From a virus (Duplodnaviria > Heunggongvirae > Uroviricota > Caudoviricetes), in IMG/VR virus record IMGVR_UViG_2698536647_000012: a stretch of 18,232 bases of DNA; one strand, written 5' to 3'. The translations under genes were made by a program, and so were the position numbers. Shown piece by piece: positions 3,207 through 15,073 of the stretch (positions within the stretch are counted from its first letter, which is position 1; every line of letters begins with the position of its first letter). Below the pieces are notes generated by a model that made no database searches, was not told the DNA's origin, and was given only the letters and a program-made list of their open reading frames with translations.

Positions 3207-3737
3207 ATGAAAAAAGATTCGTATCCTTATTTGATTTGCATGACAGTTTCAGGGCTGATCTTTATTTTCCTTTTCTTCTGGTGGCGGGCAGATATCTACA
3301 GGGTCACGTTTCTTAATCAGAGTATATCCCACTATTACATTCTGTTTAGCATGGGAATAGCTTTTCTGTTATCTCTGTTTTGGGTTAAGAAGGGGATAGT
3401 AAAACAAAGAGGCTGGAAGAGTCTGTCAGCATACCTTAAGGTTTATGCAGGGATGTGCATATTTGCTGGATTTTTTCTGATTATACCCCTTACGACACTA
3501 ACTTATTTTTTGCCTGGAGAGACATCGTCTTATGTTGCACCGTATCGGTATACTTCCGGTAGTTCAAAAAGTTGTTCTGGAGCTGAGGTGGATGACCCCG
3601 ATCTACATGAGAATATTCGCATTTGCTATCCGTATGGCAATTATGAGTACGATAATATTATCTATGTTGAAAAGAAAATTAATATATTAGGTGCGGTAGT
3701 GACATATGCACAGACCGCGCGTGATGATACTGAATGA
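3207..3737 (+). CDS. Hypothetical integral membrane protein (about 4 predicted TM helices plus a C-terminal soluble Cys/Tyr-rich domain); accessory cargo gene
   Basis: Longest ORF in a visibly AT-rich block, on the strand opposite the pL operon. Strongly hydrophobic segments (LICMTVSGLIFIFLFFWW, ILFSMGIAFLLSLFWV, YAGMCIFAGFFLIIPLTTL). ATG at 3207 is in frame with the track ORF 3135..3737. No family recognised. Confidence 0.6.
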   Translation: MKKDSYPYLICMTVSGLIFIFLFFWWRADIYRVTFLNQSISHYYILFSMGIAFLLSLFWVKKGIVKQRGWKSLSAYLKVYAGMCIFAGFFLIIPLTTLTYFLPGETSSYVAPYRYTSGSSKSCSGAEVDDPDLHENIRICYPYGNYEYDNIIYVEKKINILGAVVTYAQTARDDTE

Positions 3738-4912: not shown

Positions 4913-5583
4913 TGCTCCCCAAATACAAAACCAATTTCAGCCAGTGCCTCGTCCATTTTTTCGATGAACTCCGGCACCATCTCGTCAAAACTCGCTATAT
5001 ACTTTTCATTCCGCTCAATCACGACATAATGCAGGCCTTCACGCTTCATACGCGGGTCATAGTTGGCAAAGTACCAGGCATCTTTTCGCGTCACCCACAT
5101 GCTGTACTGCACCTGGGCCATGTAAGCCGACTTTATGGCCTCGAAACCACCGAGCCGGAATTTCATGAAATCCCGGGAGGTAAACGGGCATTTCAGCTCA
5201 AGGCCATTGCCGTCACTGCATAAACCATCGGGAGAGCAGGCGGTGCGCATACTTTCGTCGCGATAGATGATCGGGGATTCAATAACATTTACGCCGGAAG
5301 TGAACTCAAACAGGGTTCTGGCGTCGTTCTCGTACTGTTTTCCCCAGGCCAGCGCTTTAGCGTTAACTTCCGGAGCCACACCGGTGCAAACCTCAGCTAG
5401 CAGGGTGTGGAAGTAGGACATTTTCATGTCTGGCCACTTCTTTCCTGATCGGGGCTTTGCTATCACGTTGTGAACTTCTGAAGCGGTGATGACGCCGAGC
5501 CGTAATTTGTGCCATGCATCATCCCCCTGTTCGACAGCTCTCACGTCGATCCCGGTACGCTGCAGGATAATGTCCGGTGTCAT
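4903..5583 (-). CDS. exo: Lambda exonuclease (Red-alpha)
   Basis: 226-aa ORF recognised as lambda Exo along its length; overlaps the bet stop as in lambda. Confidence 0.95.
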
Positions 5584-6370: not shown

Positions 6371-6667
6371 TTATACCTCTGAATCAATATCAACCTGATG
6401 GTGAGCAATGGTTTCAACCATGTACCGGATGTGTTCTGCCATGCGCTCCTGAAACTCAACATCGTCATCAAACGCACGGGTAATGGCTTTTTTGCTGGCC
6501 CCGTGGCGTTGCAAATGATCGATGCATAGCGATTCAAACAGGTGCTGGGGCAGTCCTTTTTCCATGTCGTCTGCCAGTTCTGCCTCTTTCTCTTCACGGG
6601 CGATCTGCTGGTAGTGACGCGCCCAGCTCTGAGCCTCAAGACGATCCTGAATGTAATAAGCGTTCAT
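6371..6667 (-). CDS. gam: Gam (RecBCD inhibitor), 98-aa form
   Basis: Translation matches the lambda Gam short form ([21 protein letters not shown]...). Reading upstream in frame by hand gives a stop with no intervening Met, so only the short form is encoded. Confidence 0.9.
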
Positions 6668-6742
6668 GGCTGAACTCCTGAAAATGGCTGTGAAAATATC
6701 GCCCGCGAAATGCCAGGCTGATTAGGAAAACAGGAAAGGGGA

Positions 6743-7033
6743 TTAGTGATTGAGGCCGTTACCGCGTCCGTCGAGAAAAACTTCCACGAGCAAATCACGG
6801 GTATAAGTGCGCTCGATGCCGCGATGCAGATAAAGCCGTCCGCGTAAATTAGCTGATGCAGTCCAGGTACCATCTTTGTGTTTGACCAGCATGCCTGGCA
6901 TGACCGCACCGCGATTAACGGTCTGCGTTCCGTAATGTTGATGAACCATAAAAACTCCTGCCCGTAAGCTGGGCTGCTGAACATATAGAGACTTCTGCGC
7001 GTATTCAGGCGGTGGATGGCCGCCGGTTGTCAT
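6743..7033 (-). CDS. Hypothetical protein, first gene downstream of pL (ATG-start version of track ORF 6743..7153)
   Basis: The track ORF starts with TTG at 7153. The first ATG (7033) has a GAGG-type SD upstream and gives a 96-aa product ([13 protein letters not shown]...). No family recognised. It occupies the N/kil/cIII position. Confidence 0.4.
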
Positions 7034-7170
7034 AACTAAGCCGCCTCGTTGAAGCGACTGAGGTATAAAGTGTTGTGTTGATTTCAGCTGGTCACACCGA
7101 CGTTCACGCGTCCGTTTCACCCCTCGCACTCCCCGAAGCCTGCTGAAATTCAAACTGCGGATCTAAGCGG

Positions 7171-7222
7171 TCATCGCAACGGTGAAACAGGTGGTTACCG
7201 TATCGTTGTGTCGTTGCGATGA
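7171..7222 (-). promoter_or_regulatory. Compound inverted repeat at the 5' end of the predicted pL transcript (outer stem TCATCGCAACG/CGTTGCGATGA, nested ACGGT/ACCGT)
   Basis: 11-bp outer inverted repeat with a nested 5-bp repeat and reiterated CAACG/CGTTG and CATCGCA motifs, just downstream of the predicted pL start. Confidence 0.4.
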
Positions 7223-7226
7223 ATTT

Positions 7227-7255
7227 ATTTAAAACTATAGTTGTTTTATCGTCAA
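7227..7255 (-). promoter_or_regulatory. pL candidate (minus strand: -35 TTGACG, 17-bp spacer, -10 TTAAAT)
   Basis: Minus-strand sequence gttgttgacgataaaacaactatagttttaaat is nearly identical in architecture to the pR candidate on the other side of the repressor gene. Confidence 0.55.
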
Positions 7256-7290
7256 CAACAAAAGTTGTTTTATCGGTTGTTTTAAATATA
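7236..7290. promoter_or_regulatory. OL operator cluster (reiterated GTTGTT/AACAAC half-sites, e.g. GTTGTTTTATCGTCAACAACAAAAGTTGTTTTATCGGTTGTTTT)
   Basis: Several direct and inverted copies of the hexamer GTTGTT overlapping the pL candidate; the same half-site forms the palindrome at OR. Confidence 0.55.
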
Positions 7291-7394
7291 ACTGGTTGTA
7301 TTTAGGATGGATTTATTTTGTGACTTGCATCGCATAGCGATAACTGAAGTGAGGTGTGGTGGTTTTTTGGACGGTATGAGTTATGAGGGGGAGG

Positions 7395-7421
7395 AAAAGA
7401 AAACCCGGCGCGGTTGCCGGG
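7395..7421 (-). terminator. Intrinsic terminator of the repressor-lipoprotein transcript (CCCGGC-gcggtt-GCCGGG then T-rich on the minus strand)
   Basis: 6-bp GC stem 9 bp downstream of the lipoprotein stop, followed on the minus strand by TTTTCTTTTCC. Confidence 0.6.
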
Positions 7422-7429
7422 TATGATTA

Positions 7430-7810
7430 TCAGTCAGCCCAACCTGATTTCGAGTTTATTTGGGTTTCTGACATTGTGTATTTCTTAATCGTGTCATCGT
7501 TAAAAAGAATAGTAAGTTCTTTTTTCGTACCGTTCGTTCCATTATGGAATAATCCATAGAATGGAATAAAAGTGGTGCCATTAACTTTTACTTTTGCAAA
7601 GGCGTACTTCCAGATCTCGTTTCCACTGTCAGTATATGAAACAGCATCAGGAGAACCAAAGTAAGATTTAACCTCATTCTTGGTTGTTTTACCTTCCTGA
7701 AGTTTAGACTGGACACTAATTTCAGTTTCATTTTTGAGTTGCTGGTTGCCTGAAGAAGCACACCCAGCCAATACAGATGCCATCATGGCAGCGATTAGGA
7801 TTTTTCTCAT
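7430..7810 (-). CDS. Lipoprotein (signal peptide plus lipobox LAGC), accessory gene in the rex position downstream of the repressor gene
   Basis: 126-aa ORF, N-terminus MRKILIAAMMASVLAGCASS. Same strand as and downstream of the repressor gene, so it would be expressed in the lysogen. Mature part loosely resembles small BamE/SmpA-like lipoproteins; not verified. Confidence 0.7.
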   Translation of the reverse strand: MRKILIAAMMASVLAGCASSGNQQLKNETEISVQSKLQEGKTTKNEVKSYFGSPDAVSYTDSGNEIWKYAFAKVKVNGTTFIPFYGLFHNGTNGTKKELTILFNDDTIKKYTMSETQINSKSGWAD

Positions 7811-8039
7811 TTTATGTTTCCATTCATTATAACCAGAAACATCTTAACATAATGATTCGAAATAAAAACCGCTACGAGATAGGGGGACATTTTGCTGACA
7901 GTAGCAACAAATCTCAGCTAACAACGAGAATATTTACTGAAATATGCAAACAGATTTGGCGTTCTTATAGAGAATTTAGTGCAATATCTAATCCGAGTGG
8001 TATAAATCTTAACCTTCGCTCCCTTAAGTCGTAGATAAA

Positions 8040-8729
8040 TTAACCATGCTTCCTGTACGTCTGCGGCATGCTTCCAATGACCTTACCGAATATGAACACC
8101 CGGTTCATCTCGTCTTTCTCGATCGGGTCCCACGGCGAGTAGCTCTTGTTATCAGAGATAACCAGCAGCTTATCCTTCATCATTTGAAGACGTTTTACAT
8201 GGGCAGTGTCGTCGTACAGAAACGCATAGATGCCATCACCGTCGAAAGATTTAACAGTGATATCAACGAACAGCAGGTCACCTGGTTCGATCGTCCCTGA
8301 CATGCTGTCACCTCGCACGTTAATGATGCGGATATTTTCCGCCTTCCTGCCATCGAACATGTGACGAGCATCGTCAAACGAGTACTCAACCGAGCGTAGA
8401 ACTTCTACAAACTCACGGTTGATTACACCTGGCCCGGCACTGACTTCTATATCAAGAACGTCAATTTTGAAGTATTTGGAATGGCTGACAGTTGATTGTA
8501 TTGGTTGCACTGTACTGTCTGACATATTTCCAACGCCAGAAGATAACCATTCTGCGCGTACACCCAAAGCGTTCGCGATCTCCACGATTTTAGTTGTTTG
8601 GTTAGCTTTCCCTGTTTCGATTTTCTGAATAGCAGCCTGGCTAACCCCGACCAAATCCCCAAGCGCCTTTTGTGTAAGGCCTCGCGCTAATCTGGCTTCT
8701 TTAAGTCTTTCTGAGAGTGTTGTTTTCAT
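8040..8729 (-). CDS. CI-type prophage repressor (N-terminal XRE HTH plus C-terminal S24 LexA-like autopeptidase)
   Basis: 229-aa ORF. HTH segment (LTQKALGDLVGVSQAAIQKIETGK). S24 catalytic motif GDSM (VRGDSMSGTIEPGDLLFVD) and a downstream Lys (AHVKRL). Divergent from the cro-like gene across an operator/promoter region. Confidence 0.9.
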   Translation of the reverse strand: MKTTLSERLKEARLARGLTQKALGDLVGVSQAAIQKIETGKANQTTKIVEIANALGVRAEWLSSGVGNMSDSTVQPIQSTVSHSKYFKIDVLDIEVSAGPGVINREFVEVLRSVEYSFDDARHMFDGRKAENIRIINVRGDSMSGTIEPGDLLFVDITVKSFDGDGIYAFLYDDTAHVKRLQMMKDKLLVISDNKSYSPWDPIEKDEMNRVFIFGKVIGSMPQTYRKHG

Positions 8730-8770
8730 AGATCAAATGTACAACCAAGGTTTTATTTCATCAAACGAAA

Positions 8771-8806
8771 ATGGTTGTTGACTAAAAACAACCATAGTTT
8801 TAATCT
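8771..8806 (+). promoter_or_regulatory. OR/pR: palindromic operator ATGGTTGTTGACTAAAAACAACCAT overlapping -35 TTGACT, 17-bp spacer, -10 TAATCT
   Basis: Perfect 25-bp palindrome with GTTGTT/AACAAC half-sites covering a near-consensus sigma70 promoter aimed at the cro-like gene (start 8834, SD GGAGG). Confidence 0.65.
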
Positions 8807-8833
8807 TGATTCGGATTAACCACGGAGGTTGTT

Positions 8834-9064
8834 ATGAACCCAGCAATCAAAACAGCGATCAATATCGTTGGTTCACAAAAGAAACTAGGCGATGCCTGCG
8901 AAGTTTCACAGCAGGCCGTCTATAAGTGGCTTCACAACAAAGCAAAGGTATCCCCTGAACATGTCGGCAGCATTGTTACGGCTACTGGTGGAGTTGTGAA
9001 GGCATACCAGATTCGCCCGGATCTTCCGAAGTTGTTTCCACACACCGAAAAGAACGCAGCTTAA
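8834..9064 (+). CDS. Cro-like HTH regulator of the YdaS family
   Basis: 76-aa ORF (MNPAIKTAINIVGSQKKLGDACEVSQQAVYKWL...), first gene of the rightward operon with a strong SD; resembles Rac-prophage YdaS-type Cro proteins. Confidence 0.75.
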   Translation: MNPAIKTAINIVGSQKKLGDACEVSQQAVYKWLHNKAKVSPEHVGSIVTATGGVVKAYQIRPDLPKLFPHTEKNAA

Positions 9065-9076
9065 ATTTCCATTTCA

Positions 9077-9088
9077 CGCTCTTTAACA
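9077..9088 (+). promoter_or_regulatory. boxA-like element (CGCTCTTTAACA) downstream of cro, candidate nutR
   Basis: 12-mer matching the lambdoid boxA consensus (CGCTCTT(T)A) in the cro to cII-position intergenic region. No clean boxB hairpin was found next to it. Confidence 0.4.
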
Positions 9089-9133
9089 ATAAGCAATCAA
9101 CTTAACAGTCAATTCAAACTAAAGGAGTCAATT

Positions 9134-9673
9134 ATGCAACCACTTACATACCAACAGACTAGCGGATTTATTCCGACTGCGGTGATAAATCGTTCTCAAA
9201 CAAAACAAGCTCCAGGCCACGAAAAAATCCGTGATGCCGTCCGCGCCTGGTCGGCTGTAGATAATCAGGATGTCGTTGCCGCACTCATTGTGAATGAGTA
9301 TCGGGAGCAGGGCGACGGCACCATCGATTTCCCTGATGATGTCAGCCGTGCACGCCAGAAGCTGTTCCGCTTCCTCGATAACAAATTCGATTCTGAAAAA
9401 TACCGAAATAACGTGCGTGAACTGACCCCGGCAATTCTGGCGGTACTACCGCTGGAATATCGCGGTTACCTGGTTGAGCAGGATAGCTTCATGGTTAGGT
9501 TGGCTGAAATGGAAAAGGAACTCAGTGAGGCAAAACAGGCTGTCATTCTCAACGCACCACGCCACCAGAAACTGAAGGAAATTAGTGAAGGTATTGTGTC
9601 GATGTTTCGTGTGGACCCAGATCTGGCTGGTCCATTGATGGCGATGGTTACTACCATGCTGGGGGCGATATGA
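9134..9673 (+). CDS. YdaT-like protein in the cII position
   Basis: 179-aa ORF with good SD (AAAGGAG). Central segment (ELTPAILAVLPLEYRGYL) resembles Rac-prophage YdaT, which follows the YdaS-type Cro. Confidence 0.6.
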   Translation: MQPLTYQQTSGFIPTAVINRSQTKQAPGHEKIRDAVRAWSAVDNQDVVAALIVNEYREQGDGTIDFPDDVSRARQKLFRFLDNKFDSEKYRNNVRELTPAILAVLPLEYRGYLVEQDSFMVRLAEMEKELSEAKQAVILNAPRHQKLKEISEGIVSMFRVDPDLAGPLMAMVTTMLGAI

Positions 9674-9759
9674 CAGGTTCAGAAATGGCGAAAGCCGGTC
9701 TGCTGGAACAGAACCGACTTTCAGGTGCAAATCGTAACACACTCATTGCGGGAGGAATT

Positions 9760-10689
9760 ATGGCAAACACTGCTGAGATATTCAATTTTCCAGTGCCGGA
9801 TGCGGCACAAAAGGAGCCGCGCGTGGCAGATCTCGATGATGGTTATACGCGCATTGCAAATGAGTTGCTGGAAGCTGTGATGCTGGCCGGATTAACACAG
9901 CACCAGCTTCTGGTCTTCCTGGCTGTCATGCGCAAAACATATGGCTTTAATAAAAAACTGGATTGGGTGAGCAACGAGCAACTGTCCGGATTGACCGGGA
10001 TATTACCGCACAAGTGTTCTGCTGCAAAAAGTGTTCTGGTAAAGCGTGGGATTTTGATTCAGAGCGGGCGGAATATCGGTATTAATAATGTGGTCAGTGA
10101 ATGGTCAACATTACCCGAATCAGGTAAGAAAAATAAAGTTTACCTGAAAGAGGTAAATTTACCTGAATCAGGTAAGAAAAGTTTACCCAAATCAGGTAAA
10201 GGCGTTTACCCGAATCAGGTAAACACAAAAGACAAACTAACAAAAGACAATATAAAACCTTTTTCGTCCGAGAATTCTGGCGAATCCTCTGACCAACCAG
10301 AAAACGATCTTCCTGTGGTGAAACCAGATGCTGCAATTCAGAGCGGCAGCAAGTGGGGGACAGCAGAAGACCTGACCGCCGCAGAGTGGATGTTTGACAT
10401 GGTGAAGACCATCGCACCATCAGCCAGAAAACCGAATTTTGCAGGGTGGGCTAACGATATCCGCCTGATGCGTGAACGTGACGGACGTAACCACCGCGAC
10501 ATGTGCGTGCTTTTCCGCTGGGCATGCCAGGACAACTTCTGGTCCGGTAACGTGCTAAGTCCGGCCAAACTCCGCGACAAGTGGACCCAACTCGAAATCA
10601 ACCGTAACAAGCAACAGGCAGGCATGATAGCCAGCAAACCAAAACTCGACCTGACAAACACTGACTGGATTTACGGGGTGGATTTATGA
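9760..10689 (+). CDS. O: Replication initiator O (lambda O family; contains the origin iterons)
   Basis: N-terminal region (MANTAEIFNF...VADLDDGYTRIANELLEA...RKTYGFNK...NISEW) is clearly homologous to lambda O. The track ORF starts at 9670, but the ATG at 9760 has a GGAGG SD and aligns with the lambda O start. Iterons and an AT-rich tract lie inside the gene, as for ori-lambda. Confidence 0.85.
   Translation: MANTAEIFNFPVPDAAQKEPRVADLDDGYTRIANELLEAVMLAGLTQHQLLVFLAVMRKTYGFNKKLDWVSNEQLSGLTGILPHKCSAAKSVLVKRGILIQSGRNIGINNVVSEWSTLPESGKKNKVYLKEVNLPESGKKSLPKSGKGVYPNQVNTKDKLTKDNIKPFSSENSGESSDQPENDLPVVKPDAAIQSGSKWGTAEDLTAAEWMFDMVKTIAPSARKPNFAGWANDIRLMRERDGRNHRDMCVLFRWACQDNFWSGNVLSPAKLRDKWTQLEINRNKQQAGMIASKPKLDLTNTDWIYGVDL
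10111..10222. repeat. Origin iterons: about five copies of the palindromic 17-mer TTACC(C/T)(G/A)AATCAGGTAA at roughly 23-24 bp spacing, followed by an AT-rich tract (to about 10260)
   Basis: Copies read at about 10111, 10140 (degenerate), 10159, 10183 and 10206, inside the O coding region, which also encodes a repeated LPESGKK peptide. Followed by aaacacaaaagacaaactaacaaaagacaatataaaacc. Confidence 0.8.
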
Positions 10690-11387
10690 AAAACATCGCC
10701 GCACAGATGGTTAACTTTGACCGTGAGCAGATGCGTCGGATCGCCAACAACATGCCGGAACAGTACGACGAAAAGCCGCAGGTACAGCAGGTAGCGCAGA
10801 TCATCAACGGTGTGTTCAGCCAGTTACTGGCAACTTTCCCGGCGAGCCTGGCTAACCGTGACCAGAATGAACTGAACGAAATCCGCCGCCAGTGGGTTCT
10901 GGCTTTCCGGGAAAACGGGATCACCACAATGGAACAGGTTAACGCAGGAATGCGCGTAGCCCGTCGGCAGAATCGACCATTCCTGCCATCACCCGGGCAG
11001 TTTGTTGCCTGGTGCCGGGAAGAAGCATCCGTTACCGCCGGGCTGCCAAACGCCAGCGAGCTGGTTGATATGGTTTACGAGTATTGCCGGAAACGTGGCC
11101 TGTATCCGGATGCAGAGTCTTATCCGTGGAAATCGAACGCGCATTACTGGTTGGTTACCAACTTGTACCAGAACATGCGGGCCAATGCGCTGACTGACGC
11201 GGAATTACGGCGCAAGGCTGCCGATGAACTGACCTGTATGACAGCGCGAATTAACCGTGGTGAGACGATACCTGAACCAGTAAAACAACTTCCTGTTATG
11301 GGCGGTAGACCTCTAAATCGTGCACAGGCTCTGGCGAAGATCGCAGAAATTAAAGCTAAGTTCGGACTGAAAGGAGCAAGTGTATGA
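10686..11387 (+). CDS. P: Replication protein P (DnaB helicase loader)
   Basis: 233-aa ORF recognised as lambda P along its full length; start overlaps the O stop. Confidence 0.95.
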   Translation: MKNIAAQMVNFDREQMRRIANNMPEQYDEKPQVQQVAQIINGVFSQLLATFPASLANRDQNELNEIRRQWVLAFRENGITTMEQVNAGMRVARRQNRPFLPSPGQFVAWCREEASVTAGLPNASELVDMVYEYCRKRGLYPDAESYPWKSNAHYWLVTNLYQNMRANALTDAELRRKAADELTCMTARINRGETIPEPVKQLPVMGGRPLNRAQALAKIAEIKAKFGLKGASV

Positions 11388-11887: not shown

Positions 11888-11916
11888 TTGACAATTGTTA
11901 CTGAGTCTTGTAAGAA
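11888..11916 (+). promoter_or_regulatory. Candidate sigma70 promoter for the NACHT NTPase gene (-35 TTGACA, 17-bp spacer, -10 TAAGAA)
   Basis: Consensus -35 hexamer with 17-bp spacing to an A/T-rich -10-like hexamer in the AT-rich leader. Confidence 0.35.
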
Positions 11917-11951
11917 TGCACCACGTATTGGTTAATGAATGTGGTGAAAAA

Positions 11952-13847
11952 ATGGATGAGTTTCTTGCGACTATTATTAATAGCACAGTAGGAAAAGCTG
12001 CGGAAAAAATAACAGAAGTATTGCTCTCTAAACCTTGGGCTAGGGACCTAGATGAAGGCAAGGTTATACTCGAACAATTAAATGATCCCCTCGGAAGAGA
12101 AAATTATTTAAGAAAGCATGTGCTACCATCTCTGAAAATGAGAACTTTGCACAACGCTGATTATGATATTTTTTTAGATGATATTTATTATCCGTTAACT
12201 GTTGAGGTGGCATCTAATAAAGACAAGGTCGTTATAAAAGATGGGGTCACTTTACCATTTCATGGTATTGTAAATATAGTCGGTATAGCGGGGCAAGGGA
12301 AAAGTACTATTTTACGCAAGTTGTTTAGCGAGGAAATAAAAAAATCAGAACGGATGCCTTTTTTTATTGAATTAAGAAGGGTGAAGAATGCAAATATTAT
12401 TGCTTATCTGGCAGACATTCTTAATTCATTTGGTGTGGGGTGTTCAGAGGATAGCTTGAAAATATTACTGCAATCCCAAAGAGTCGTTTTAATGTTGGAT
12501 GGATTTGATGAGGTTAAACATGAAGAGCGAACTATGATGATGAATGAAATAAAAAACATTCATTATCATTTTAACACACCAATTATCGCAACAACGAGAC
12601 CAAATACAGATATATGTTATACTACTGATGTGTATAATATTTTTATAGATAAGCTAAATATTTCTGATAAGATTTGTATTCTTCATTCTTTATCGAAAAA
12701 TGACAGATTCTCAAGTAGTGATGCCTCGTTTAAAGTCTTGGCGGATTTACTATGTGATAAAGAAGAACTTGAGGGAACTATTTGCAATCCAATTTTAGTT
12801 ACTCTTTTGTATTATTGTTATCCTTATATGAATGATATTCCAAATAATATAATAGAGTTTTATCGAAGCCTCTTTGACACCTTATATGCAAGGCATGATA
12901 AAATAAAAGTATATACGCGCGAGAAAAAATCAAACATTATTGGTGAAAAAGCTAAATTGTGTTTTTCAGCTATTTGCTATAACGCACTGATTGAGGAGAA
13001 ATTTGAGTTTTGGGGAGAGGAGTTGCTTAGATATGCTGAAGATGCTATTGAAACAGAAGGTTATCTTAAAGAAGATGCATCAAACTTTATAGATGATCTT
13101 ATTGAGATAACTTGCCTTATCCAACCTGAGGGAAATAATAGGTATGTTTTTCTGCATAAATCAGTGCAAGAATTTTATGCTGCTTTTGCGGTAGCAAATT
13201 TACCGATTGAGTATAAAAAAGATATATACGAAAATCTTATGGTGGCTATTAAATGCTCTGAACAGTTAGATAACTTCATGTTGTTTTTACATTCACTAGA
13301 TTCCAAAGCATTTATAGATGAAATCACAATAAAAGCTTCTCGTGATATGGGGGTTGTAGATGTCGCAAACATGACGAGAGAGAGAGTTGAGAATGTTTTT
13401 GACTCGGCACTAAGTAGAGTATTTATCAAAGGCAACTCGACATCGAATGACTCAGTGATTTCGCTTCATTACGACTTTGTATTAGGTTCGCTCTTAGGTA
13501 TTGATATTCTACCTATAATGTCTGGAAAAGAACGAGTTCCTATGACAGAAATTGATTTGATTTTTGACGACCTTTTTTCATGCACGATGGATAAGGGTGA
13601 GTTAAACTTATACAAATTTGAAGTTAAAAAACAAAAAAATAATATTGATACTGATGTTCAGACTGATGATTATTTATTTCCCTTGGTGGATTATCTTAAG
13701 GTCAGGGGGGTTTATGGTTTGATGCTGGATACTTACCATCAGACAATTAAGGATTTTTATGATAGATATTATCAACCAGCTTATGATTCGAATCTTCGAA
13801 GAACACTAGCAATGGGAAGAAATTTCAAGTTAAAGAAAAATAATTAA
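11952..13847 (+). CDS. NACHT-type STAND NTPase (bacterial NLR-like protein), candidate anti-phage defence protein
   Basis: Walker A GIAGQGKST; Walker B of the NACHT type (VVLMLDGFDEV); sensor-1-like IIATTRP; NPxL-type segment (CNPILVTLL); winged-helix signature YVFLHKSVQEFYAAF. Start placed at the second in-frame ATG (MDEFLAT...); the track ORF begins at a TTG at 11895. Sits in a visibly AT-rich island. Confidence 0.85.
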   Translation: MDEFLATIINSTVGKAAEKITEVLLSKPWARDLDEGKVILEQLNDPLGRENYLRKHVLPSLKMRTLHNADYDIFLDDIYYPLTVEVASNKDKVVIKDGVTLPFHGIVNIVGIAGQGKSTILRKLFSEEIKKSERMPFFIELRRVKNANIIAYLADILNSFGVGCSEDSLKILLQSQRVVLMLDGFDEVKHEERTMMMNEIKNIHYHFNTPIIATTRPNTDICYTTDVYNIFIDKLNISDKICILHSLSKNDRFSSSDASFKVLADLLCDKEELEGTICNPILVTLLYYCYPYMNDIPNNIIEFYRSLFDTLYARHDKIKVYTREKKSNIIGEKAKLCFSAICYNALIEEKFEFWGEELLRYAEDAIETEGYLKEDASNFIDDLIEITCLIQPEGNNRYVFLHKSVQEFYAAFAVANLPIEYKKDIYENLMVAIKCSEQLDNFMLFLHSLDSKAFIDEITIKASRDMGVVDVANMTRERVENVFDSALSRVFIKGNSTSNDSVISLHYDFVLGSLLGIDILPIMSGKERVPMTEIDLIFDDLFSCTMDKGELNLYKFEVKKQKNNIDTDVQTDDYLFPLVDYLKVRGVYGLMLDTYHQTIKDFYDRYYQPAYDSNLRRTLAMGRNFKLKKNN

Positions 13848-14029: not shown

Positions 14030-14281
14030 ACGATTTTTTACATTCGGTGTTTTACTTCGACAGCCAGAATTGGGAGTCTCTATTCGTCTGGCGGCTAAAG
14101 GTGATATGGAAATCGTTATGTTTTGGCCTGAGGTAGTTGTAACTGTTGTAGCAGCTATGGCTGTGATCATCATGGTGTCCATTTACTGGGGTTGACGACA
14201 TGATTTATCTGGGGATATATTCTGTGCGTTGCCGCAAAATCGGCACACGGGATTGGCGTCCCGGAATACTACTCAACGCAT

Positions 14282-14303
14282 ACCGCGTTAAGCGGTTTTT
14301 TTA
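14282..14303 (+). terminator. Candidate intrinsic terminator (ACCGC-gttaa-GCGGT then T7)
   Basis: 5-bp stem and 5-nt loop followed by TTTTTTT on the plus strand, upstream of the Roi-like gene. Confidence 0.4.
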
Positions 14304-14458
14304 TGCGCTAAGCACGGCTACGCCCAAATTATGGTGGGCTGTGTGAGGGCTTCTTCGGGAGCGCCGGATTTGAGTAGCCGGTTACGCCAACCTTGCACAG
14401 TTCACCACCAGTCGATTGGCGTCGTTGGTGGTGATGGTTAACCTGATGAGGTGAAACT

Positions 14459-15073
14459 ATGACTACTCAATTAGCATTCCACAAAACGACGTTTACCCCA
14501 ATTTGCCACAATAACAGAATTTGGCTTACTGCCACTGAAGTTGGTTTAGCTCTGGAATATGCGGACGATAAAGCAGTTCAGCGCATTTACTCTCGTCACT
14601 CAGATGAATTTACAGATATGATGACAAGGGTGGTCAAAGTGACCACCCCTCGTGGAATGCAGGACTCTCGAGTATTTAGCCTTCGCGGAGCCCATTTGAT
14701 CGCCATGTTTGCACGAACTCCTGTAGCCAAAGAGTTCCGCCGCTGGGTTCTGGATATTCTCGATCGAGAAGTTCAACAATCCCCGATCACAAAACAATTC
14801 ACTGATAACGAACTTTGCACACTTGCTTGGTTATGGCGAGCTGGGGATGCGATGTTAACCGCCTGCCAGAACGTTACTCCTCTTCTTCAGGTTGCGGAGC
14901 ATCGTGAAGCTGGTCGCTTCACTTCCATCGAGCAAGAATATCCCCAGATACTCACCAGAGCGCGAGCAATCCTCGCCAGAGAAACGGCACATGTAAAATT
15001 CCAGCCGTGGCAGGATGATAAGTGGAGTCGAGTATTGCCACATTTGCGTCAGAATGTTATTAAACAACGTTAG
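14459..15073 (+). CDS. Bro-N domain protein (Roi / antirepressor-like DNA-binding protein)
   Basis: 204-aa ORF with Bro-N-type N-terminal features (RIWLTATEVGLALEY..., ...FRRWVLDIL). SD GAGGTGA upstream. Position between the replication and nin genes, as for HK022 roi. Confidence 0.65.
   Translation: MTTQLAFHKTTFTPICHNNRIWLTATEVGLALEYADDKAVQRIYSRHSDEFTDMMTRVVKVTTPRGMQDSRVFSLRGAHLIAMFARTPVAKEFRRWVLDILDREVQQSPITKQFTDNELCTLAWLWRAGDAMLTACQNVTPLLQVAEHREAGRFTSIEQEYPQILTRARAILARETAHVKFQPWQDDKWSRVLPHLRQNVIKQR

Follow-up and report, generated by a model that had tools for sequence, protein, structure and literature searches.

Sequence evidence for a 434-type lambdoid switch with 14-bp operators and a common immunity specificity in Escherichia coli phages

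The DNA considered here is an 18,232-nucleotide stretch from a virus of the Caudoviricetes (IMG/VR record IMGVR_UViG_2698536647_000012; hereafter the window, meaning the whole stretch), and the element of interest is the immunity region at positions 7,227 to 8,806, which governs lysis and lysogeny in a lambda-like Escherichia coli phage. The switch is of an ordinary type, a standard 434-type lambdoid one, and its specificity is uncharacterised yet very common rather than a new kind of system. The repressor gene cI (8040-8729, minus strand) encodes 229 amino acids comprising a helix-turn-helix (HTH) domain (HTH_3, residues 9-62, 5e-13) and a LexA-like Peptidase_S24 domain (residues 95-218, 1e-18). 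Its recognition helix, GVSQAAIQKI (residues 28-37), belongs to a 434-type HTH, and the best match of the DNA-binding domain among solved structures was the 434 repressor (E 4.5e-9, residues 5-68 against 2-65, gapless), with 434 Cro matched as well. Ala98-Gly99 aligns with the VRAG cleavage site of 434, and the catalytic dyad motifs are present at Ser142 (GDSM) and Lys179 (VKRL); because the Ala-Gly site and both of these residues are present, RecA-dependent induction of the prophage is expected. On the plus strand, cro (8834-9064) encodes a 76-amino acid protein with a YdaS-type HTH (Pfam YdaS_toxin, 6.6e-17; phrog_35), the helix of which (VSQQAVYKW) resembles that of cI. It is followed at the cII position by a gene for a YdaT-type protein (9134-9673, plus strand; Pfam YdaT_toxin, 7.6e-30; phrog_163), YdaT having been reported as a cII equivalent (PMC9986795), and by homologues of lambda O and P (downstream of 9670, plus strand; Pfam and PHROGs). 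The protein assignments of the initial annotation, which had called the repressor LexA-like (S24) and assigned Cro and the cII-position protein to the YdaS/YdaT type, were borne out by Pfam.

Three promoters were predicted by reading their elements from the sequence. The rightward promoter pR (8778-8806, plus strand) would consist of TTGACT (8778-8783), a 17-nt spacer and TAATCT (8801-8806), and lies 28 nt upstream of cro; its -10 element was found at the same place in four phage relatives (as TATTCT, TATTAT, TATATT and TATAAT). For the leftward promoter pL (7226-7255, minus strand), the predicted -35 element is TTGACG (7255-7250) and the -10 element either TTAAAT (7232-7227, 17-nt spacer) or TAAATA (7231-7226, 18-nt spacer), with transcription predicted to start at ~7219-7220; TTGAC(A/T/G) and TAAAT are kept in five phages, and the reverse complement of 7227-7259 reads gttgTTGACGataaaacaactatagttttaaat. 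The initial annotation had described this as an immunity region with divergent, mirror-image pL and pR, and the sequence supports this: both strings it quoted are present, and the right (OR, plus strand) and left (OL, minus strand) operator regions, each read in the direction of transcription, have 78% column identity over ~120 nt, with a core of 19 nt that is 95% complementary. The predicted repressor promoter pRM (8736-8764, minus strand) has a -35 element TTGATG (8764-8759), a 17-nt spacer and a -10 element TACATT (8741-8736) only 6 nt from the cI ATG (8729). The cI start is without a Shine-Dalgarno sequence, which, together with the closeness of the -10 element, implies that the cI mRNA is leaderless. 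The same geometry (TTGNNN-N17-TAnnTT-N6/7-ATG) is readable in four phage relatives.

GTTGT and ACAAC words are concentrated in the two operator regions. The densest 100-bp intervals in the 18.2 kb lie at OL (six words) and OR (four to five words), with Poisson P values of 3e-7 and 2e-5, respectively, before correction for the number of intervals, in agreement with the earlier proposal that these are the operator half-site words. The binding units that they make up are very probably 14-bp two-fold sites, ACAAC-N4-GTTGT, with the geometry of the 434 operators (ACAA-N6-TTGT). Five matches to ACAACNNNNGTTGT with at most one mismatch were found in the window, all of them in OL or OR, against an expectation of 0.63, and none of 200 shuffles reached five. 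Counting outward from cI, OR3 (8741-8754; ACAACCAAGGTTTT) is centred 18.5 bp upstream of the cI start, within the pRM spacer; OR2 (8765-8778; ACGAAAATGGTTGT), the weakest match, is centred 42.5 bp upstream of that start, abuts the pRM -35 element and shares its last base with the first base of the pR -35 element; and OR1 (8788-8801; ACAACCATAGTTTT) occupies the pR spacer, its last base being the first of the -10 element. A fourth site, ORx (8819-8832; ACCACGGAGGTTGT, one mismatch), covers the Shine-Dalgarno sequence of cro, at a distance from OR1 of three helical turns (31 bp) and at about +6 to +19 of the predicted pR transcript. On the other side, OL1 (7231-7244, minus strand; ACAACTATAGTTTT, one mismatch) is in the pL spacer and overlaps the -10 element, and OL2 (7255-7268; ACAACAAAAGTTGT) is a perfect match that extends, at its promoter-proximal end, onto the first base of the pL -35 element. 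A weak candidate OL3 (7286-7299, minus strand; ACAACCAGTTATAT) has a single good half-site 31 bp from OL2, the same spacing as that annotated between OL2 and OL3 in phage 434, and relatives carry an isolated AAAACAACC half-site 31-42 bp upstream of OL2. The spacings in the window are therefore 23 and 24 bp in OR and 24 and 31 bp in OL, and the layout is the lambdoid tripartite one, with OR1-3 between the predicted divergent promoters pRM and pR and a distant OL1-2 joined by a weak OL3.

Conservation was assessed over ten related loci, namely the window and nine others that share the cI recognition helix SQAAIQK(I/L), drawn from phages of Klebsiella, Providencia, Salmonella and Erwinia and from genomes of Kosakonia, Enterobacter, Klebsiella grimontii, Symbiopectobacterium and Providencia. 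Although the intergenic DNA has diverged among these loci, the 14-mers sit at fixed positions from the cI ATG: OR3 at -25/-26 and OR1 at -72/-73 in all ten, and OR2 at -49/-50 in nine, so that the full set OR1-3 is kept in nine of ten (the exception, at the OR2 position, being Symbiopectobacterium). The OL1/OL2 pair recurs in 10/10 loci, exactly 24 bp apart and 0.8-3.3 kb downstream. ORx, with at most one mismatch, occurs at the same position in eight of the ten, where the DNA between it and OR1 has diverged, and it is a probable extra site for the repressor or Cro. Base counts over 50 half-sites from five loci (the window and four phages) showed A1 and A4 to be invariant, with C5 in 46, A3 in 45 and C2 in 34, while positions 6-9 (the central 4 nt) and the flanks were variable. 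In phage PhiR47_2, which has the same immunity at 97% identity, OL1, OL2 and the OL3 half-site are kept and all three differences in the OR region fall outside the 14-mers; its copy of the GTTGTT at 7276 reads GTTTTT.

The initial annotation had paired the half-sites differently, into GTTGTT-N7/8-AACAAC units, and had reported a perfect 25-bp palindrome at OR. Such long inverted repeats do exist (21-25 bp, over the -35 elements and spacers of pR and pL), and, as they overlap the -35 elements, a dimer bound to each would repress. In the repeat at 8771-8795, however, only the two 9-bp arms (ATGGTTGTT and AACAACCAT) match perfectly; the 7 nt between them, GACTAAA, are not palindromic, and the repeat joins half of one site to half of the next (OR2, right half; OR1, left half). 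At OL the arms of the equivalent repeat are 6 bp long and 8 nt apart. The arms are thus spaced unequally within one phage, and the corresponding gap between 14-mers in the related loci is 9 nt in OR against 10 nt in OL, except in Erwinia phiEt88 (10 nt in both), so this pairing cannot be one fixed dimer geometry, whereas the spacing within ACAAC-N4-GTTGT is fixed and conserved across genera. The long-repeat scheme also leaves OR3, ORx and the outer halves of OL2 and OL1 unpaired, yet these are conserved. Compensation within the 14-mer is seen in Salmonella phage UPF_BP1, where OR2 has a degraded right half (GTGTT) and an improved left half (ACAAC). Lastly, the gapless alignment with the 434 repressor and the sister groups, all of which use 14-bp sites, favour the shorter geometry. 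We therefore regard the long repeat as an improbable operator unit.

Comparison with phage 434, the operators of which (ACAA-N6-TTGT) were read from its annotated genome, indicated both kinship with the window and a difference in specificity. The two repressors share a 434-type HTH that aligns without gaps and an S24 domain, and in both phages the operators are 14 bp long with outer A-C-A-A, OR has three sites, the pRM -35 element abuts OR2, and the Cro and cI recognition helices are similar. Spacings are also alike (OR 22 and 23, OL 23 and 31 in 434, against OR 23 and 24, OL 24 and 31 here). Nevertheless, the repressors are only 29% identical over 205 aligned columns. In the window, OR1 lies in the pR spacer, whereas in 434 it is downstream of the -10 element; the window has an extra site over the cro ribosome-binding site; its Cro is YdaS-type and its cII YdaT-type; and its cI mRNA is predicted to be leaderless, while a cI ribosome-binding site is annotated in 434. 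The recognition helix of the 434 repressor contacts DNA through Gln28, Gln29, Ser30 and Gln33, and Gln28 alone is kept in the window cI (helix SQAAIQK against TQQSIEQ), which has Ala in place of both Gln29 and Ser30, Lys in place of Gln33 and Thr in place of Arg43. In the 434 complex Gln28 contacts an adenine, and the invariant A1 opposite an invariant Gln at the helix start would fit such a contact.

Homoimmunity with 434, with operators fitting ACAA-N6-TTGT, would be consistent with the homology of the DNA-binding domains and with OL2 (ACAACAAAAGTTGT), which is an exact fit to the 434 pattern, A-C-A-A being the majority outer sequence among the window's half-sites. It is nonetheless very improbable. 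Identity in the DNA-binding domain is confined to 24 of 64 residues (37.5%) and the contact residues of the helix are replaced; operator position 5 is C in 46/50 half-sites here, while all 12 half-sites of 434 have another base there (G, A or T); and one window site fits the 434 pattern, whereas no 434 site fits the window pattern with at most one mismatch. The earlier claim of a specificity distinct from those of lambda, 434 and 21 hence stands as regards repressor identity (23%, 29% and 25%, respectively) and the differing operators of 434 and 21, but needs qualifying for 434, given the gapless domain match, the common 14-bp geometry and the outer A-C-A-A: the specificity is distinct from that of 434, yet a sibling of it.

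Operator sequence follows the recognition helix in phages with other cI helices. HK639 and PA28 resemble the window in cI, Cro and operator architecture, and HK639 also has a YdaT-type cII. Their cI helix differs by one residue (SQPAIQK rather than SQAAIQK), and their 14-bp sites, at positions equivalent to those of the window, read ATAAC-N4-GTTAT, position 2 being T rather than C; the cro ribosome-binding site has no such site over it. These sites are at 2421-2483 and 5028-5087 of the HK639 record and at 2421-2483 and 3672-3710 of the PA28 record, at OR and OL. Although both immunity regions have been sequenced, we found no operator description for them in the searchable literature. The 933W repressor was considered as the closest characterised relative of this group and rejected, as its 15-bp operator and the helix residues Ser41, Lys42 and Lys46 denote a different specificity. 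In a further group, 20 loci with the cI helix AQPTIWRL contained none or one ACAAC-type site each, and PhiR68_2, SPLA1b and Klebsiella phage 6 LV-2017 carry ATACG-N4-CGTAT-like sites instead. Cross-scanning with the four operator patterns (window, HK639/PA28, PhiR68_2 group and 434) gave an essentially diagonal result. As the cI helix changes from group to group, so does that of Cro (VSQQAVYKW with SQAAIQK, VSQPAVHKW with SQPAIQK, and VAQPTVWRW with AQPTIWRL).

A natural cassette swap between the window and PhiR68_2 separates the specificity determinants from the rest of the region. PhiR68_2, SPLA1b and ST104 have a cI C-terminal domain nearly identical to that of the window and a Cro of the same family, and PhiR68_2 additionally has ydaT, O, P and the pL leader in common with it; the group differs in helices 1-3 of cI (AQPTIWRL), the Cro helix and the ATACG-N4-CGTAT-like operators, and is therefore heteroimmune to the window. 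Identity between the window and PhiR68_2 is 89-98% across 6474-7220, 7315-7422, 8036-8596 (the cI C-terminal domain) and 9133-11259 (ydaT, O and P), and the two are unrelated in exactly two patches. The first (7221-7314, 94 bp) holds OL and pL and is replaced wholesale between near-identical DNA on both sides, with a left edge that coincides with the predicted pL +1. The second (8597-9132), swapped as a block, holds cI residues 1-44 (helices 1-3), OR, cro and the cro-ydaT spacer; the YdaT-type gene is outside this specificity cassette and is 98% shared with PhiR68_2. The OL patch of PhiR68_2 bears the TATTGCTATT word of its own OR, so that in each phage the OL word is that of its own OR. The recombination junction at 8597 corresponds to cI codon 44, inside the DNA-binding domain and past helix 3; beyond it, heteroimmune phages have helices 4-5 (TKIVEIANALGV) in common, as well as the entire C-terminal domain. 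That the repeats are conserved for promoter architecture, for a host factor or for Cro only, the S24 repressor binding elsewhere, is hardly credible: the overlap of -35 and -10 elements with the repeats does make part of the conservation promoter-driven, but the repeats at OL and OR change wholesale with the cI recognition helix while the remainder of the repressor and the promoter-distal DNA alongside stay unchanged, and OR3 and ORx lie outside the core elements of pR.

We tentatively suggest that this series could be a natural recognition code for 434-type repressors, in which Ala or Pro at the position of 434 Gln29 tracks C or T at operator position 2, and Lys at the position of 434 Gln33 tracks C·G at position 5, together with a fourth operator, likewise conserved, at the ribosome-binding site of cro. 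This immunity type and its sister groups offer a clean natural series for how helices of the 434 type read DNA. The fourth operator, conserved in the window's group, is absent from the lambda, 434 and 21 records examined; if ORx is a real repressor site, a promoter-proximal roadblock or loop anchor would have been added to the classic three-site switch.

The arrangement that we consider highly likely is a bistable switch in the style of lambda, in which a 434-family repressor acts on 14-bp ACAAC-N4-GTTGT sites. One cI dimer would bind each site through its 434-type HTH, with the Gln at the helix start facing the invariant A1. The order of occupancy that we infer has cI on OR1 and OR2 in a lysogen, where it would occlude pR, and on OL1 and OL2, where it would occlude pL. 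From OR2, centred at -42.5 against the -35 element of the predicted leaderless pRM, bound cI would probably activate that promoter, and OR3, within the pRM spacer, would shut it off at high repressor level; ORx, over the cro ribosome-binding site, would probably provide an additional block just past the pR start. Cro, with its YdaS-type HTH and near-identical recognition helix, is predicted to read the same sites as cI, and the YdaT-type protein would stand in for cII. RecA-stimulated self-cleavage at Ala98-Gly99 by Ser142 and Lys179 would part the DNA-binding domain from the oligomerisation domain and so lead to prophage induction.

Several points weigh against this arrangement. The related loci are non-independent samples. 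Weakness of the two -10 hexamers kept pR and pL from being called by a strict sigma-70 consensus scan; we retained both assignments since relatives have the hexamers at matching positions. The OR2 match contains two mismatches, and at that threshold the site was not found in the Symbiopectobacterium locus; OL3 amounts to a half-site. ORx is missing in two of the ten related loci and includes the Shine-Dalgarno GGAG, which makes its conservation partly translational, although its flanks, ACNAC and GTTGT, are not accounted for by GGAG. Finally, no motif common to the window and PhiR68_2 was found for a YdaT-dependent establishment promoter, and that promoter was not located.

Resemblance to other immunity systems was partial. 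The lambda operators are 17 bp long and unrelated in sequence to those of the window, the repressors are 23% identical (against a lambda sequence entered by hand), and the folds of Cro and cII are unrelated. The overall logic is alike: OR is tripartite, OR2 sits at about -42 of a pRM that is leaderless (by prediction in the window), OL is ~1.5 kb distant, cargo occupies a rexAB-like slot, and the repressor is cleavable with RecA (again a prediction in the window). Phage 21, with a repressor 25% identical to the window cI, has 18-bp, P22-like operators (ATTTAAG..CTTAAAT), and no ACAAC-type site was found in the imm21 region. The HK022 repressor is 41% identical. The PaaR2/YdaS/YdaT switch of CP-933P likewise has divergent pRM and pR, a Cro of the YdaS type, a cII equivalent of the YdaT type and a slot for cargo behind its repressor gene, which is leaderless, as predicted for the window; it differs in its operator consensus, GTTTAGTAA in 18-bp repeats (PMC8630535, PMC9986795). 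Its YdaT site, TTGATT-N6-AATCAA, was not enriched above chance in the window, where the best local matches (8806-8823 and 9083-9100) had two to three mismatches.

The immunity region is widespread. Across 7000-9200 the window is 99.7% identical to Escherichia phage PhiR26_1, whose deposited record lists E. coli K-12 MG1655 as the phage host and annotates cI, Cro and cII but not the operators; PhiR34_1, PhiR47_2, PhiR5_1, IdasGreatGrand and Turner carry the same immunity region. The 536-bp specificity cassette (8597-9132) was present at ≥95% identity in 1509 of 5426 complete E. coli genomes (~28%), with up to four copies in a single genome; the two to four copies in some of these complete genomes would be homoimmune prophages or remnants in one cell. 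The cI-helix group of the window is represented in Escherichia, Klebsiella, Enterobacter, Kosakonia, Providencia, Salmonella, Erwinia and Symbiopectobacterium, and this spread among Enterobacterales relatives, with the E. coli count, makes it one of the commonest lambdoid immunities in nature. Our literature search found no operator description for it: a full-text search for the operator strings returned no relevant paper, older subscription literature being beyond its reach, and the PhiR phage names led only to their membership in a panel of lambda relatives. A correct operator model predicts which prophages are homoimmune and at which sites repressor-controlled cargo is expressed.

Such cargo occupies a rexAB-like slot between cI and OL (7403-7810), which in the window holds a gene for a BamE-like lipoprotein (7430-7810, minus strand; phrog_3135) and its own intrinsic terminator (7403-7422, minus strand). 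Elsewhere the slot carries defence or toxin-antitoxin genes. It holds a GevT/GevA toxin-antitoxin pair in PhiR47_2 and other genes in E. coli prophages, and it is empty in PhiR34_1. Beyond pL, the leader opens with a hairpin, also present in heteroimmune phages, in which 7171-7181 and 7212-7222 form a perfect stem of 11 bp; the leader was found only in 16 closely related phages. It was considered as an antiterminator RNA of the HK022/HK639 put type and rejected, having no nucleotide similarity, no Rfam family and an ordinary fold energy (z -0.6 to -1.0). No homologue of N was seen after pL with Pfam or PHROGs, and the first open reading frame (ORF) there (region 6743-7222, minus strand) has a Kil-like C-terminal part (phrog_294) and an Arg-rich N-terminus (KRTRERR). 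Downstream of P, a 650-amino acid ORF (11895-13847, plus strand) contains a NACHT NTPase domain (Pfam, 3e-11) and had no PADLOC match; it is probably a defence-type cargo gene, and here the window differs from PhiR26_1, in which PD-lambda-1 is annotated on the opposite strand. Further along, Rfam matches at gathering score to isrK (14230-14302) and C4 antisense RNA (14327-14412, plus strand) are located immediately upstream of an antirepressor-like ORF with Bro-N and P22_AR_C domains (14459-15073, plus strand), and together (14230-15073) they may form an antirepressor module under RNA control, with the cI of the window as its target.

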